A stretch of DNA of 64,000 bases from a virus (taxonomy: Duplodnaviria; Caudoviricetes): IMG/VR virus record IMGVR_UViG_3300033075_001021. One strand, given 5' to 3'. The notes below the pieces were generated by a model that was given only the letters and a program-made list of their open reading frames with translations, did no database searches and was not told where the DNA came from. Shown here piece after piece: positions 4,571 through 61,569 of the stretch; positions within the stretch are counted from its first letter, which is position 1, and every line of letters begins with the position of its first letter. A program made the translations under genes and the position numbers.

Positions 4571-6033
4571 ATGTTACCCCTTGCAGATTCAAATATTTTT
4601 TCTTCGGTCCACTTTTCAATTCCAGATAATACAGCTCGATATTCACCAATAGTTGTGGTTTTATAAATACTAACTGGATTATCCAAATCATGAATGATGT
4701 TCTTAAATAAATCAATTACATCAATTGTAAATTCTGGTAAAATAAATTTTTTATTTGGTTTATTACCGCCCCCAATACCACCGCCAGAAGAACCACCACT
4801 GGTCTTAGTTTGCTTTATAACTGGGATTAACATACCATTAAAATTGCTACCGTTAAAGGTTGACAAGAACTTATTATCTGTCAACATTAATGCACCACAT
4901 ACGCAAGCGTGTGTGAAATCCATAAAACCATATTGCTGTGTAGTAACCTTCAAATAATATTTTTCCATACTAGGGTTACCTCTTAACACCCTTGAAAACA
5001 TTTGATTGATAAGGTTTGGATTGTGGGTACCAGACATATCAATGATATTCCAAAGATTATCGTCTGAATAACCTAATCTAGCTCTATCTACCACAACCAA
5101 TACATCAAATTCATTGTTTTTAAATTTCACTAATTCTGAACTATCAACGTCCCCTTCAGAATGAGAAACACCAACATTAACGTTATGTTTTTTAAGAATA
5201 TTATAAACATCATCAGCTTGTTTTACTGACCTACAAGTTATAAGTGTTTTTCCAAGTTTATTATACGTAAACGCCCAAGATTTAATTTTAGTTAAAAGTG
5301 ATGGGCTATTAAATTCTTCGGGTTTAAATTTCTTCTTAACCCTTTCAATTAACTTAAGAATAATTGATTCAAGTGTTGCTTCAGTATCTTTTTTTGGAAA
5401 CTTATACCTACCCTTAATTTCATAATTACTGTCGATTTGCCCAGTCCAATTGTATTTAGATGCAACCAGTTCAATATTAAGTTTTGCAAAATATTCTGGC
5501 GGTATTGAATTTATTGCCAATGGATAAAGAGGATATCCACCTTTTTTAATGAAAACAGACGGTGTACCAGTTAACAAAATTTGTTTCTTTGGTTTAACCG
5601 TCTCAACAATTTTTTGTACCTGAGGCGCTAAATAATTTTCATGGGCTTCATCCACAATAAGTAAATCATAGTGTCCCTTAATCTTCTTAATTGTTTGTGG
5701 TAAACAAACATGTACTTGAGTGTTTGGATTAAAATTATCTGAATAAGTAAAATTCACATTCACTTCATTCAAACGGTCCATATAATTAGACCTTAAAACA
5801 GTTGTAGAATGAGTTAAAACCAATGCTTTTGCTTTTTGGTTTATTTTAAGATACCTTTGAAGTATATCAATTGATATTTCAGTTTTACCAGCGTTAGGTG
5901 CAAGGCCAAGTACTGACACGCTATTTTTCATTGCAAATTCAACTGCTGGTTCTTGATATGCTCGAAGAATCAAATCTCTTTTCATTATTTTACTTTTAGG
6001 TACAAATATACCAAAAATCATTGACAAAAACAA
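4567..6033 (-). CDS. SF2 helicase/ATPase (ResIII-like); likely start MKRDL ~5985
   Basis: LRAYQE, PNAGKT, IVDEAH, LLTGT, QMFSRVLR. Confidence 0.85.
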   Translation of the reverse strand: MFLSMIFGIFVPKSKIMKRDLILRAYQEPAVEFAMKNSVSVLGLAPNAGKTEISIDILQRYLKINQKAKALVLTHSTTVLRSNYMDRLNEVNVNFTYSDNFNPNTQVHVCLPQTIKKIKGHYDLLIVDEAHENYLAPQVQKIVETVKPKKQILLTGTPSVFIKKGGYPLYPLAINSIPPEYFAKLNIELVASKYNWTGQIDSNYEIKGRYKFPKKDTEATLESIILKLIERVKKKFKPEEFNSPSLLTKIKSWAFTYNKLGKTLITCRSVKQADDVYNILKKHNVNVGVSHSEGDVDSSELVKFKNNEFDVLVVVDRARLGYSDDNLWNIIDMSGTHNPNLINQMFSRVLRGNPSMEKYYLKVTTQQYGFMDFTHACVCGALMLTDNKFLSTFNGSNFNGMLIPVIKQTKTSGGSSGGGIGGGNKPNKKFILPEFTIDVIDLFKNIIHDLDNPVSIYKTTTIGEYRAVLSGIEKWTEEKIFESARGNI

Positions 6034-23408: not shown

Positions 23409-23495
23409 TGGTGGCCCCGATGGGATTCGAACCCATGATGGTCTTGCGACATCAGTTTAAAAGACTGTTGGTATCAACCACTAACCGACGGAGCC
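23409..23495 (-). tRNA. tRNA-Lys(TTT) with long variable arm
   Basis: Loop CTTTTAA; variable arm TGTCGCAAGAC. Confidence 0.8.
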
Positions 23496-23512
23496 AAAAT
23501 TAATCTTATTTT

Positions 23513-23546
23513 GTACCCCCGTTAGGAATCGAACCAACGTGAGGCA
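23513..23546 (-). pseudogene. 3' fragment of a split tRNA-Lys
   Basis: T-arm-like GTTCGATTCC plus CGGGGGT complementary to GCCCTCG of fragment 24157-24200. Confidence 0.7.
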
Positions 23547-23547
23547 C

Positions 23548-23999
23548 TTAAGTTTTTTGCTTTTCATTTAAGAATTTATACCAACCAAATTGTATTGCAG
23601 TTTTACGTCTGTGACAATTAGCACACCTAACATCACATTTATTAATCTCTGCGAATACTGTTTCTAACCTATAACCCTGTGATACTAATGTGCTAATATC
23701 TTTATATTTATTAGAATCATCTCTATGGTCAAATTCTAAAACAATTGGGTCAGTTTCACCACAATCAATACATGGATGGGTTGATAAATATTCAAATACT
23801 TTTATCCTAATTAAATCTCTATTCTTTCTATTTCGTTCATAAACATCAACCTTATGTTTTTCACGGTTATTGTTATAATACGCTTTAGATTTTATTCGAC
23901 TACATTCCCGACAAATAGTACTGTAACCATCACGTTTGGTTTTATTCTTATTGAAAAGAGCTAAGTCTTTTTCTTGTTTACAAATGCTACATATTTTCA
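23548..23999 (-). CDS. HNH endonuclease (tRNA-associated)
   Basis: CIDCGETDPIVLEFDH..CANCHRRKT. Confidence 0.85.
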
Positions 24000-24056
24000 T
24001 AATTCTATTTTTATATAAATATGTGGCTTTTAACAAAAAGACAATTTAAAAGCTTA

Positions 24057-24133
24057 GGTGGGCCCCAAGGGAATCGAACCCTTTTTTTGACTGGTTAAAA
24101 GCCAGTGGCAATACCAAATTTTGCTAGAAGCCC
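24057..24133 (-). tRNA. tRNA-Lys(TTT), replacement copy on the HNH element
   Basis: Complete cloverleaf between the two halves of a split tRNA-Lys. Confidence 0.8.
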
Positions 24134-24156
24134 AATTTTATACCCCCACTAGCTTT

Positions 24157-24200
24157 AACGGTTTAAAAGACCGTTGCCTACACCAGTTTGCTACGAGGGC
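24157..24200 (-). pseudogene. 5' fragment of a split tRNA-Lys(TTT)
   Basis: Acceptor 5' strand, D arm and anticodon arm ACGGT CTTTTAA ACCGT; no T arm. Confidence 0.75.
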
Positions 24201-24761: not shown

Positions 24762-24852
24762 GGTGCAGATGGAGAGAATCGAACTCTCGTCCGCTGGTTG
24801 GAAGCCAGCTATAATATGTCGTTAATTCGACGAACCACTATACGACATCTGC
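24762..24852 (-). tRNA. tRNA-Gly(TCC) with extra D-loop hairpin
   Basis: Loop CTTCCAA; GTCG-AATTAA-CGAC in D loop. Confidence 0.75.
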
Positions 24853-25662: not shown

Positions 25663-25750
25663 GTCGGGGTGACAGGAATCGAACCTGCGGGGAGACTTGC
25701 TCACTCGGCTCCAAACCGAGACCGCTACCTGACTACGGGCCTACACCCCG
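25663..25750 (-). tRNA. tRNA-Pro(TGG) with long variable arm
   Basis: Loop TTTGGAG. Confidence 0.8.
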
Positions 25751-32241: not shown

Positions 32242-32515
32242 CTTGTTGTTATTGAAAAATCCGTTATCGAATTGTCTGAAAGTGTATTTGCCATCGAACC
32301 CATCTGGGTCATATTCTACGACAACATCAACACCACAGAACGTTAGAATGCCGCTCCGATATGATTTTAAGAAGAACGTAAATATTTCATTGAAGTTATC
32401 AGAATACTTCCGTAACTTCCTGTCTTTTCTTGAACCAATGAGCGACTTGCGTTCTTCTATACGCCCATTGGTGTTAATGCGTCCAGCCTTTTCATGATAG
32501 TTTGTTTTTAATTTT

Positions 32516-32653
32516 GCGGACGTGAGGGGAATCGAACTTAATGACCTTATCGGTCAAACCCTGACTTTAGCGTGACAAGCTAATTGATTTTGTTGCTGAA
32601 TATAATCTTGACAGATTACTTTTTTTAACGTTATACCACTTAACTACACGTCC
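32516..32653 (-). tRNA. tRNA-Asp(GTC) with two insertions
   Basis: Acceptor, D and anticodon arms intact; ~45-nt insert after D arm and ~21-nt hairpin in T stem. Confidence 0.6.
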
Positions 32654-33293: not shown

Positions 33294-33377
33294 GTAGCCC
33301 CCGTGGGAATCGAACCCACTCCGACCTGACGGCCCCGACTTGAAAGGACGGTCACTCACCCAATTGTATTGAGGGCC
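33294..33377 (-). tRNA. tRNA-Glu(TTC) with long variable arm
   Basis: Loop CTTTCAA. Confidence 0.75.
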
Positions 33378-33555: not shown

Positions 33556-33915
33556 TTATTTTCCTTTATAACTACGAGCTTCTGTTAAAAACTTTTCATC
33601 ATCTCTATTGCTATGTTCAATATTATGGCAATTTGAACATATCAACTCGCATTTATCCAATTCTTTAATAATAATATCCCAAGCTCGATTTGCGACATTA
33701 CCAATTGTAAATTCTTTTTCTGCTGGATTCTTATGATGAAACTCCAAAGCAGATGGATGTTTATCATAACCACACCTATTACACTTTCCACCAAGGTATT
33801 CAATAGCTTTTAATTTTGTTCTATAACGTCTAATCTTAGTGTTACATGAATTACATCTAGTTCTATTTTTACCCTGTAATTGTTTAATAGGTTTATCACA
33901 TAATTTACAATTCAT
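33556..33915 (-). CDS. HNH endonuclease (tRNA-associated)
   Basis: CNRCGYDKHPSALEFHH..CSNCH; wedged between tRNA-Phe and tRNA-Glu. Confidence 0.85.
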   Translation of the reverse strand: MNCKLCDKPIKQLQGKNRTRCNSCNTKIRRYRTKLKAIEYLGGKCNRCGYDKHPSALEFHHKNPAEKEFTIGNVANRAWDIIIKELDKCELICSNCHNIEHSNRDDEKFLTEARSYKGK

Positions 33916-56091: not shown

Positions 56092-56518
56092 TATTTAAAT
56101 GATGTGTTTTTTATTAACCTTGATTTTTTATTGACAATTTGTAACGCTGAATCTAATAGTATTTCTCTACGGTCCATTTTTTCTGGTACTGGTGAAAATA
56201 CAACCGTATCGGCCATTGGACCAGAGGCAGTTGCAATATCAGTTGGTGACATATCAAGAGGTATTGTGCTGGTTGAGTCAAATGTATACCTTGATTTTTC
56301 GGCTGATTCTTTGCCCATTTCCCTTATTATTGCTGATAACTTAACATAATCATCTAAAAGAGCCCTATTTTCAGCGACCAATTTAGAACAATCATCACTT
56401 TTAAAATATGTGCCAATGAGATAGGTTCCTGAACCAAAAACCAATAAAACCAAAAGAACCACAAAACGCTGTTTCATGGTAAAAAGCTGTAAAATCTTAG
56501 CATATTCTTTCATATTCA
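56091..56518 (-). CDS. membrane-anchored hypothetical protein
   Basis: N-terminal TM segment; follows TATTTAT motif. Confidence 0.55.
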
Positions 56519-56567
56519 TAAATATGCCCCATAAATGAAAAAAGGTGCCAAAAAGCACCTTTATTTT

Positions 56568-56664: not shown

Positions 56665-56738
56665 GTAGTCCCAAAGGGATTCGAACCCCTATAGTCTGCT
56701 TAGAAGGCAGACGTCCTATCCAGTTGAACGATGGAACC
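56665..56738 (-). tRNA. tRNA-Arg(TCT)
   Basis: Cloverleaf. Confidence 0.9.
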
Positions 56739-56742
56739 ATTC

Positions 56743-56834
56743 TGGACCGCTAGGCGGGATTCGAACCCACATTTGATATTATCGCAGCTCCAATTACAGA
56801 TAACGGTTTAGAAGACCGATTTGGCTACAAGCGG
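56743..56834 (-). tRNA. D-armless tRNA-Arg(TCT)-like RNA
   Basis: Acceptor, 8-nt linker, CTTCTAA arm, long variable region, T arm, CCA. Confidence 0.65.
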
Positions 56835-56879
56835 ATGTGTGAATTTATTTGACTTGATTAACAATATCACTAAAAAGTA

Positions 56880-56953
56880 GGTGGCCTCGGCGGGGGTCGA
56901 ACCCACAACAAACGTTTAGGAAACGCTTATGATAACCATTTCACCACGAAGCC
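56880..56953 (-). tRNA. tRNA-Arg(CCT)
   Basis: Cloverleaf. Confidence 0.85.
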
Positions 56954-56955
56954 AT

Positions 56956-56984
56956 TGGTAGTCCCAGAAGGATTCGAACCCTCT
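56956..56984 (-). pseudogene. 3' fragment of a split tRNA-Arg(ACG)
   Basis: GAGGGTTCGAATCCTTC TGGGACT ACCA; pairs with GGTCTCA of 57522-57566. Confidence 0.8.
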
Positions 56985-57396
56985 AATTATTTTCAACATA
57001 GTGTAATTTTCTATGGCAATTTGAACATAAAATAATACACTTCTCAACTTCCCTCATTATTTTTTCAAGACTGTATGTGTTATAGATTAAATTTGAAACT
57101 TCAAATTCTTTACTATTCCTATCTTGATGATGAAAATCTAAACAGGCTATATGTGTTTCGCCACATTTTTCGCATTTTAGTTTAGACTTAAAATCACGAT
57201 ACCATTCTTGGTTTCTTTTCTTATTTTTTAGATTTCTATTTAGCGTTGTTTGTTTATTACGGTTGTAAGATTCTTTTCTAATTTCTTTCCAACATAATAC
57301 ACAAGCGCTATGATAAACACCATTTTTTTTATTTTTAAAAGGAAATTGATTCAACTCTTTTTCCTTTTTACACCTTGAACAAAATTTTCTTTCCAT
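56983..57396 (-). CDS. HNH endonuclease (tRNA-associated; start MERKF)
   Basis: CEKCGETHIACLDFHH..CSNCHRKLH. Confidence 0.85.
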   Translation of the reverse strand: MERKFCSRCKKEKELNQFPFKNKKNGVYHSACVLCWKEIRKESYNRNKQTTLNRNLKNKKRNQEWYRDFKSKLKCEKCGETHIACLDFHHQDRNSKEFEVSNLIYNTYSLEKIMREVEKCIILCSNCHRKLHYVENN

Positions 57397-57442
57397 AACT
57401 TTTTTTAATAAATATTGCGAATTATTAAAAAAGTTCGTAACT

Positions 57443-57519
57443 GTGACCTTAGAGGGATTCGAACCCACCACTTCTCTTGGTTCGTAGCCAAGTGTTTTAT
57501 CCAGTTAAACTATAAGGTC
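57443..57519 (-). tRNA. tRNA-Arg(ACG), replacement copy on the HNH element
   Basis: Complete cloverleaf. Confidence 0.85.
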
Positions 57520-57521
57520 AT

Positions 57522-57566
57522 ATCTGATTCGTAGTCAGGTGCTTTATCCAGTTAAGCTATGAGACC
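57522..57566 (-). pseudogene. 5' fragment of a split tRNA-Arg(ACG)
   Basis: GGTCTCATAGCTTAACTGGATAAAGCACCTGACTACGAATCAG. Confidence 0.8.
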
Positions 57567-57570
57567 ATTT

Positions 57571-57645
57571 GTGGTTCCAGAAGGATTCGAACCCTCACCA
57601 AACTTACTTCGAAGGCAAGTATGCTGTCCATTACACCATGGAACC
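57571..57645 (-). tRNA. tRNA-Arg(TCG)
   Basis: Cloverleaf. Confidence 0.85.
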
Positions 57646-59123: not shown

Positions 59124-59157
59124 ATAAATAAATATACGGGAAGTACAAAAAAGTCGA

Positions 59158-59245
59158 TGGAGGATTGGGTGGGATTCGAACCCACGATGGTCTTGCGACA
59201 CTGGGTTAACAGCCCAGACTTTTCGGCCTCTAAAGCAACCAATCC
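59158..59245 (-). tRNA. tRNA-Asn(GTT) with long variable arm
   Basis: Variable arm TGTCGCAAGAC, CCA. Confidence 0.8.
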
Positions 59246-59250
59246 ATTAT

Positions 59251-59342
59251 GTCGTGCAGATGGGATTCGAACCCACATTTGATGTTATCTCAAGATGCCA
59301 GTTACAAGTGTGATGTATATAAGACACCGCTGCTACTGCACG
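59251..59342 (-). tRNA. D-armless tRNA-Ile(TAT)-like RNA
   Basis: Same architecture as 56743-56834. Confidence 0.6.
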
Positions 59343-61527: not shown

Positions 61528-61569
61528 ATAAATATATGCAAATATACGAAAGATTTTTTAAAAAGCAAA
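61528..61569 (-). promoter_or_regulatory. tandem TAnnTTTG promoter plus TATTTAT motif
   Basis: Part of a ~70-bp near-identical repeat (61489-61558 vs 34589-34658). Confidence 0.8.

Follow-up and report, generated by a model that had tools for sequence, protein, structure and literature searches.

An HNH endonuclease gene and a complete tRNA-Arg(ACG) lie between the two halves of another tRNA-Arg(ACG) gene in a phage tRNA array

We focused on an arginine tRNA locus in a 64,000-nucleotide (nt) stretch of DNA, referred to as the window here, from a phage of the class Caudoviricetes (IMG/VR record IMGVR_UViG_3300033075_001021). At this locus, the gene of an HNH endonuclease and a complete tRNA-Arg(ACG), which we call A, are situated between the two halves of a second tRNA-Arg(ACG) gene, which we call B. 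Read along the minus strand from 57645 to 56880, the order is tRNA-Arg(TCG), the 5' fragment of B (B5), A, a leader, the HNH gene, the 3' fragment of B (B3), and tRNA-Arg(CCT), with the following coordinates:

57571..57645, minus strand: tRNA-Arg(TCG), called by ARAGORN and scored at 57.7 bits with Rfam; the upstream neighbor, with a 4-nt spacer to B5
57520..57566, minus strand: B5, orphan 5' fragment of a tRNA-Arg(ACG), 47 nt, tRNA positions 1-46
57443..57519, minus strand: A, complete tRNA-Arg(ACG) with a 7-nt variable loop, called by ARAGORN and scored at 58.6 bits with Rfam
57397..57442, minus strand: HNH leader, 46 nt, with a palindrome and a promoter-like box
56983..57396, minus strand: HNH endonuclease gene, 137 amino acids (aa), whose stop codon TAG overlaps the first bases of B3
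56956..56984, minus strand: B3, orphan 3' fragment, 29 nt, with position 48, the T arm, the acceptor strand TGGGACT, A73, and an encoded CCA
56880..56953, minus strand: tRNA-Arg(CCT), called by ARAGORN and Rfam; the downstream neighbor, with a 2-nt spacer after the CCA of B3

B5 contains the acceptor strand GGTCTCA, the D arm, the entire anticodon arm with the anticodon ACG, and nucleotides 1 to 3 of the variable loop. It is directly abutted by A, without any spacer, and is identical to it at 37/47 positions; A is the sole ACG tRNA of the window. Neither B5 nor B3 is called separately by ARAGORN or Rfam. When joined (57566-57520 + 56984-56956), they give a 76-nt sequence that ARAGORN calls as tRNA-Arg(ACG), with 7/7 acceptor pairs (two of them G.U), normal D and T arms, and a single C27.A43 mismatch. 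The insert between the two fragments comprises 535 nt, made up of the tRNA, the 46-nt leader, and the open reading frame (ORF), and places the break in the variable loop (positions 46/47). A first-pass annotation of the window had located the tRNA pieces and the HNH gene at these minus-strand sites, with complementary acceptor strands (GGTCTCA/TGGGACT) separated at the variable loop by a complete, diverged tRNA of the same anticodon plus an HNH gene; our analysis bears this description out, with the 5' piece taken here as 57566-57520. The same layout is found in at least six independent assemblies: four Logan contigs carry it without any difference, JGI and Logan contigs match it at 99.8% identity, a 304-kb ENA contig has the same gene and tRNA order with a 99% identical HNH gene, and a freshwater run yielded a 22.7-kb contig with 99.2% identity. 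The samples that contain the phage come from freshwater, rivers, and wastewater. Given that the arrangement is shared by contigs from JGI, ENA, and several Logan runs, an assembly artifact is excluded.

The two fragments are halves of one tRNA-Arg(ACG) gene, as shown by their native spacing, their rare acceptor pairing, an intact counterpart, and the recurrence of the design at other loci. Both B5 and B3 retain the native 2- to 4-nt spacing to their outer neighbors. Since a plain search for 7/7 acceptor pairing discriminates weakly (control matches at 3/8 loci), we used an empirical null of 631 distinct 3' acceptor strands, taken from ∼1000 tRNAs of these phage arrays. Only 5 of these 631 strands (0.8%) pair 7/7 with GGTCTCA, and such complementarity is similarly rare (0.2-0.8% of real tRNA 3' strands) for each of the four fragment pairs that flank an HNH gene. 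The intact counterpart is a B-like tRNA in a different array (L229), 64/73 identical, which has the D arm and the TGGGACTAC end (3' acceptor) in common with B.

The design recurs in a distant relative (L017), whose HNH protein is 62% identical to that of the window and whose parts stand in the same order: a 40-nt 5' piece (GGCCTCA...) abuts a complete tRNA-Arg(ACG), which is followed by the leader and then by the HNH gene, the reading frame of which passes through a 3' piece ending in TGAGGTC-A. The two acceptor strands (GGCCTCA/TGAGGTC) are 7/7 complementary and differ from the pair in the window by a compensatory change at 3:70 (T-A to C-G), while the pieces themselves are decayed, in that the anticodon stem lacks its 3' strand and the T loop is cut down to 5 nt. 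Judged from the sequences, the compensatory difference would fit insertion into B genes that had already diverged; the alternative, selection on acceptor pairing, is argued against by the decay in L017.

The design is also found at a tRNA-Lys(TTT) locus of the window itself, which consists of the following features:

24141..24200, minus strand: orphan 5' part of a tRNA-Lys(TTT), with the acceptor strand GCCCTCG, the D arm, and the anticodon arm, without a T arm
24057..24133, minus strand: complete tRNA-Lys(TTT) upstream of HNH#2, called by ARAGORN
24001..24056, minus strand: HNH#2 leader, with a perfect palindrome followed by ATATTTAT (24022-24015)
23548..24000, minus strand: HNH#2, a paralog of the Arg-locus HNH gene, 34% identical
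23511..23538, minus strand: orphan T arm and acceptor strand CGGGGGT-A, 9 nt past the HNH#2 stop codon

Here, CGGGGGT pairs 7/7 with the GCCCTCG at 24200; the T arm missing from the left remnant is the one found after the HNH#2 stop codon. In the left remnant, a 9-nt loop links the anticodon arm to the 3' acceptor-like TGGGGGTA, giving it the appearance of a T-armless tRNA, and the acceptor strand plus trailer forms a 15-nt direct repeat at this locus (13/15 identical). A further locus (L031) has a Trp-like 5' piece, an HNH gene, and a matching T arm, with no spare tRNA in between. A third and more distant family member of the window (33556-33914) exactly fills the gap between tRNA-Phe and tRNA-Glu and has neither a leader nor tRNA fragments.

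The carried tRNA, the leader, and the nuclease gene are inherited as a unit. A is identical to the tRNA that precedes the HNH gene of L017 at 64/77 positions overall and at ∼97% of the core outside the acceptor stem, and it is thus closer to this counterpart than to the neighboring B5. The core of the leader is 94% identical between the window and L017 and 88-91% identical to those of two other relatives (L025 and L021), whereas the HNH coding sequence is 67% identical to that of L017 and 66-70% identical across all three. Given that A and the leader are far more alike than the coding sequence, tRNA, leader, and nuclease gene have been inherited together, and these comparisons indicate that the leader is more strongly constrained than the HNH gene. 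The carried tRNA has the longer variable loop at both loci of the window (7 nt in A versus 4-5 nt in B; 6 versus 5 nt at the Lys locus). The extra length would shift the T arm relative to the anticodon loop and might protect the carried gene from cutting, but this is no more than a hint. In L021, the tRNA right before the HNH leader is a D-armless tRNA-Arg(ACG) (L021:2866-2942) with a D-loop-like insert after AGAAGTG, which is the variable-loop sequence of A; this links the D-armless tRNAs of the window genome to HNH cassettes.

The protein encoded at the Arg locus matches the HNH endonuclease profile phrog_2255 (E value of 1.7e-34) as well as phrog_3106 (5.8e-26), shows a weak match to McrA (6ghc) across the HNH core, and has no match in Pfam-A at E values of ≤1. 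Among 37 homologs, H89, H90, N126, H128, and H132 are invariant, including the catalytic His/Asn/His residues, as are nine cysteines, the zinc-binding ones among them (C6, C9, C32, C35, C75, C78, C120, C124, and C127). The AlphaFold model is confident (predicted local distance difference test score [pLDDT] of 95.7) and features an N-terminal Cys4 zinc-ribbon-like unit, a 39-residue helix, and a putative beta-beta-alpha-Me core. Structural matches are weak, with a Z score of 6.3 for Hpy99I over residues 1-41 and of 3.6 for the Gme HNH protein over residues 59-137. Structure searches gave little past the zinc ribbon and the HNH core, and the hint at endonuclease VII given by PHROG found no structural backing. 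The gene is free-standing, given that its ORF lies outside any intron (no ribozyme family was found) and that its leader has its own promoter-like ATATTTAT.

The family resides in phage tRNA arrays, where its members are tied to particular tRNAs. We found 606 homologs of the Arg-locus protein at E values of ≤1e-3 and examined the genetic context of 166 non-redundant loci from metagenomes and IMG/VR, most of which are in tRNA arrays, within ∼60 nt of tRNAs. The start codon typically lies 40-60 nt past one tRNA, and the stop codon anywhere from a few nucleotides inside the next tRNA to ∼60 nt before it. Nearly all relatives with more than 50% identity adjoin tRNA-Arg(ACG) or tRNA-Arg(GCG). In at least nine lineages, orphan fragments of a T arm and acceptor strand are found within a few nucleotides of the HNH stop codon, which makes the right junction (approximately tRNA positions 46-48) a family trait. 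One member (L032:1-620) shows a tandem partial duplication: an HNH N terminus and the 3' part of a tRNA-Arg(TCT) lie ahead of the full HNH gene, behind which there is an orphan T arm.

The leaders of this family contain palindromes in which one arm reproduces the 7-nt anticodon loop of the tRNA associated with the gene and the other arm is the reverse complement of that loop. At Arg(ACG) loci, the palindrome is of the type (C)TACGAA ... TTCGTA(G); the one in the window is imperfect, TTACGAA (57440-57434) and TTCGCAA (57421-57415), and overlaps ATATTTAT (57415-57408). In a relative in which the HNH gene follows tRNA-Arg(TCG) (L007), both arms contain TTCGAA, and the palindrome of HNH#2, GCTTTTAA (24053-24046) ... 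TTAAAAGC (24033-24026), corresponds to the anticodon loop of tRNA-Lys(TTT). Further family leaders match the loops of Gly(TCC), Glu(TTC), Trp(CCA), and Arg(TCT), so that at least seven anticodons are represented altogether. We assessed this match in the 48 genes that have a tRNA-free leader and a called neighbor by permuting the loops among the loci. The exact loop occurs in both orientations in 9 of the 48 leaders (permuted mean, 1.2; maximum, 6), and a match of at least 6/7 in each orientation in 20 (7.4 ± 2.2 when permuted), with none of 2000 permutations reaching either count. The matching tRNA is more often the downstream neighbor (15 versus 8). Since palindromes as such are only modestly more frequent in these AT-rich leaders than in shuffled ones (72 versus 51 of 83), the signal is the match to the anticodon loop and not the palindrome itself. 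An alternative explanation of the Arg palindrome, with the T loop (TTCGAA) as second half-site, fails as a rule for Lys, Gly, Glu, and Trp. The palindromes of the window, L025, and L029 combine an ACG-type 5' arm with a 3' arm complementary to a GCG-type loop, which would produce an A.C mismatch in an RNA hairpin but amounts to two valid half-sites in DNA.

The box ATATTTAT has 32 matches in the window versus 11 expected, 26 of the 32 on the coding strand, and is often located 10-25 nt upstream of start codons, also in front of GIY-YIG genes and other ORFs (for example, at 57408-57415, 24015-24022, 59128-59135, 56518-56525, and 61528-61535). From this distribution, ATATTTAT is probably a promoter element of the phage, and the palindrome, located immediately upstream of it, is in the position of an operator. 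We found no description of such an anticodon-loop leader in the literature searched, and it is the most novel and testable element of this finding. We tentatively propose that the palindrome acts as an address label, that is, as a functional element that couples the expression or targeting of the nuclease to one tRNA identity; this is a possibility to which we give slightly less than even weight. It may be a putative recognition half-site of the enzyme that is reused as operator, in which case the HNH family would read anticodon-loop DNA and cut ∼10 base pairs away, at the variable loop. Alternatively, it may act as an RNA hairpin, whose codon-bearing arm would pair with the mature tRNA. With either function, each switch of the cassette to a different tRNA would entail a change of label.

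Homing endonucleases in phage tRNA clusters are already known. SegB of phages T4 and T6, a free-standing GIY-YIG homing endonuclease within the T-even tRNA cluster, recognizes the T-psi-C motif GGTTCRANTCC of the T arm and cuts inside tRNA genes, with the consequence of preferential inheritance of the tRNA region and of tandem units made of whole tRNAs and truncated segB (PMC2330249; PMC13096335). For the Arg locus, we consider it probable that a free-standing HNH homing cassette with its own tRNA-Arg(ACG) disrupted the resident gene B where its variable loop meets the T stem. The cassette would consist of A, which is predicted to be functional, the 46-nt leader in a regulatory role, and the HNH gene, and it would have left B5 and B3 as a most likely non-functional scar. 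By analogy with the T-psi-C recognition of SegB, and given the constant right junction, the HNH enzyme may have made or exploited a break in its target gene, between anticodon loop and T arm, and the unit of A, leader, and HNH gene may have been copied into such a break in B. This first event would have been illegitimate, since at the left junction a fragment abuts a complete tRNA. During later coinfections, B5 and B3 together with the flanking Arg genes could provide the homology through which intact B alleles receive the cassette by ordinary homing. Because A keeps the decoding of CGN codons, the disruption would cost the phage nothing, and A may escape cutting, perhaps through its longer variable loop. 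The first-pass annotation had read the locus as a bring-your-own-replacement strategy. This reading is partly supported: one tRNA-Arg(ACG) gene is interrupted at the variable loop by a unit of a complete tRNA-Arg(ACG) and an HNH gene, the carried tRNA, leader, and HNH gene are inherited jointly, and the design recurs at the Lys locus and in L017.

As a check, it had proposed to find the empty allele in relatives. We searched with exact-protein look-ups of four flanking or internal proteins, in the contigs of four runs, and with DNA patterns in IMG/VR. An HNH-free allele with an intact B was not found at the Arg locus among near-identical contigs, read sets, or IMG/VR, and every near-identical contig carries the HNH cassette. 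Two apparent joints of B5 and B3 in the run contigs turned out to be unrelated tRNAs from other contexts, in which the short sides measure 26 nt, unrelated letters intervene, and the flanks do not match. A synteny search in IMG/VR with the 217-aa neighbor protein found nothing, and the GenBank phage set returned generic tRNA matches only, without a close relative. In related phages, the slot between tRNA-Arg(TCG) and tRNA-Arg(CCT) is occupied by three other HNH configurations with Arg(GCG), small ORFs, or Arg(ACG). It contains Arg(GCG), an HNH gene, and a small ORF in L025; an HNH gene followed by an intact Arg(ACG) in L029; and the D-armless Arg(ACG) followed by an HNH gene in L021. In L007, whose flanks are 92-96% identical to those of the window, a 56% identical HNH gene comes straight after Arg(TCG); then come an orphan T arm unlike that of the window, two small ORFs, and Arg(GCG). 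The slot is thus empty in none of L025, L007, L029, and L021, and the presence of other HNH configurations in it marks it as a recombination hot spot.

Besides the missing empty allele, several observations weigh against disruption of B by a cassette with its own tRNA. The left junction, with a fragment set against a whole tRNA, is beyond simple homologous repair and requires an illegitimate first event. In many members of the HNH family, the cognate tRNA is intact and located downstream of the HNH gene, so that disruption is not the rule. Fresh insertions of GIY-YIG genes into this array fall cleanly between genes: a contig that is 99.8% identical to the window over the common Arg-cluster stretch (L004) has two extra GIY-YIG genes (phrog_314), at L004:8580-9353 (corresponding to window 56743-56739) and at L004:∼4733-5430 (window ∼59894-59890), both of which are cases of clean presence or absence inside 5-nt spacers between tRNAs, with no tRNA fragments or damage. 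Both A and B bear the copied anticodon loop, and hence the leader element cannot discriminate between them. Finally, B3 and its spacer match the 3' end of tRNA-Arg(TCG) and the spacer behind it at 29/32 positions, and tRNA-Arg(TCT) (56665-56738) natively has TGGGACT as its 3' acceptor strand too, so that B3 cannot be uniquely assigned from the Arg locus alone.

This last resemblance would be expected if the locus were a by-product of ectopic recombination triggered by an endonuclease, with the fragments and the extra tRNA as debris, A as a resident paralog, and B never targeted. Breaks in a dense array of similar tRNAs, repaired through short homologies in the T arm or D arm, would produce duplications, deletions, and chimeras. 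SegB indeed drives the segmental amplification of units of tRNA and truncated segB (PMC13096335), and the duplicated HNH N terminus with a partial tRNA in L032, the 15-nt direct repeat at the Lys locus, and the further tRNA fragments and odd tRNAs found in the window away from HNH genes are of the kind that such repair would leave behind. It would have to yield the same ordered design three times, each time with a tRNA of the same anticodon and with the break between the anticodon loop and the T stem. The native spacing of the remnants fits one insertion better than several rearrangements, and A is nearer to the A of L017 than to the neighboring B. We therefore regard an origin by ectopic recombination as rather unlikely, although it is the one serious rival, and favor disruption of B by the cassette.

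It is much less probable still that the split tRNA is functional, with halves that are transcribed and joined in cis or in trans, for example, by the RNA ligases and the kinase of the phage, and with the HNH unit as an intron-like element. Both halves in the window are complete and the 3' half has an encoded CCA, while genes for an Rnl1-like and an Rnl2-like RNA ligase as well as a kinase-like gene lie a few kilobases away. In addition, a 260-nt contig from a wastewater metatranscriptome corresponds to window 56777-57036 without differences and covers the 3' end of the HNH gene, B3, and tRNA-Arg(CCT); this is compatible with cotranscription but is not proof of it, since the contig may come from DNA or from an unprocessed precursor. 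Against joining, the insert is wholly taken up by the tRNA, the leader, and the ORF, and no group I intron or other ribozyme family is present in the window (no Rfam intron family reached the threshold, and none appeared in the region at E values of ≤10). A group I intron in a tRNA gene was rejected on account of the missing ribozyme core and of the break in the variable loop instead of the anticodon loop. Joining in trans as in the split tRNAs of Nanoarchaeum was rejected as well, as no helix flanks the break (duplex energy of -11.6 kcal/mol versus -9.3 ± 2.6 kcal/mol for shuffles, P of ∼0.19). Given this, the decayed pieces of L017, and the Lys remnant that lacks a T arm, the rejoining of halves, for which the first-pass annotation had suggested sequencing of tRNAs, finds no support. 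That the pieces are not gene remnants at all but products of chance resemblance or misassembly is negligibly probable: the T-arm sequences within the array of the window are highly repetitive, but the same layout occurs in independent assemblies from several studies, the D arm and anticodon arm of B5 are unmistakable, and the pairing null stands at 0.8%.

If disruption by a cassette is correct, SegB is its closest precedent. Common to both is a free-standing nuclease in a phage tRNA array with a target inside tRNA genes, which for the HNH enzyme is our inference. SegB mobilizes the flanking tRNA genes and generates duplications of whole tRNAs and truncated nuclease genes; the tandem duplication in L032 is reminiscent of the SegB amplification units of phage T6. 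The enzyme of the window differs from SegB in being an HNH protein with a zinc ribbon instead of a GIY-YIG protein, in the location of its cassette inside a tRNA gene and not between genes, in being tied to one tRNA identity, where SegB shows no isotype preference, and in its leader palindrome that copies the anticodon loop.

Integrating islands and prophages target tRNA genes and bring a replacement 3' end in their attP site. The tRNA fragments at integrating elements have been discussed previously (PMC9897764). As in these islands, a tRNA gene is disrupted at the Arg locus, its function would be restored by sequence of the element, and a displaced tRNA fragment is found at the far end. Unlike in the islands, where a 3' segment is joined to the resident 5' part, a whole tRNA is brought, both 5' and 3' orphans are present, the element is only ∼0.54 kb long, and there is no integrase in the insert; together with the absence of a repeated segment at the Arg locus, this led us to reject integrase-mediated insertion. 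The intron endonuclease I-TevI represses its own synthesis by binding an operator at its promoter that mimics its homing site. The stretch of target-gene sequence copied at the promoter-like box of the window nuclease is a candidate for the same logic, with putative binding, but unlike in I-TevI it consists of a 7-nt anticodon loop in inverted duplicate that varies with the associated tRNA across the family. In the Aeromonas phage Aeh1, nrdA is split by mobE. Genes with a free-standing endonuclease gene inside a conserved gene and without an intron have been termed fractured genes (PMC2677866). The HNH gene of the window is likewise free-standing and inside a conserved gene with no intron; in fractured genes the halves remain functional through protein assembly or split inteins, whereas here the function would be replaced by the carried spare copy. 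In the literature searched, we found no report of a cassette that both breaks a tRNA gene and brings along a spare one.

Huge phages encode dozens of tRNAs, and the Arg locus offers a concrete route by which such arrays may be built and shuffled. It also suggests that an endonuclease cassette of this small size can reside in a conserved RNA gene with no need of a self-splicing intron, because it carries a spare copy of that gene. An HNH family that has spread through the tRNA arrays of many phages could explain the orphan tRNA halves and duplicated isoacceptors seen in them, supplies a set of small (∼140-aa) nucleases apparently tied to specific tRNA genes, and is a warning to annotators of tRNA pseudo-fragments. 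If the palindrome is indeed a recognition or control element, it would provide a readable code of target choice in a homing endonuclease family and a new example of a selfish element that regulates itself with a copy of its target.

The window as a whole is AT rich (35% G+C) and contains 56 tRNA genes called by ARAGORN, all on the minus strand, next to genes for an endolysin-type peptidase, RNA and DNA ligases, and a CCA-adding-enzyme-like protein. Additional tRNA-like genes with 7/7 acceptor stems, missed by ARAGORN, are located at ∼24770-24852, ∼25670-25750, ∼33295-33377, 56746-56834, and ∼59255-59342. One resembles Gly(TCC) and has 16 additional nt, another resembles Pro(TGG) and has a long variable arm, a third resembles Glu(TTC), and two are D-armless. 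A 5'-truncated Asp(GTC)-like piece lies near 32515-32590. Two tRNAs of different identity, tRNA-Lys(TTT) at 23409-23495 (87 nt) and tRNA-Asn(GTT) at 59158-59245 (88 nt), both encode CCA and have a 31-nt segment of long variable arm and T arm in common, with one mismatch, which suggests recombination between tRNA genes of different identity.

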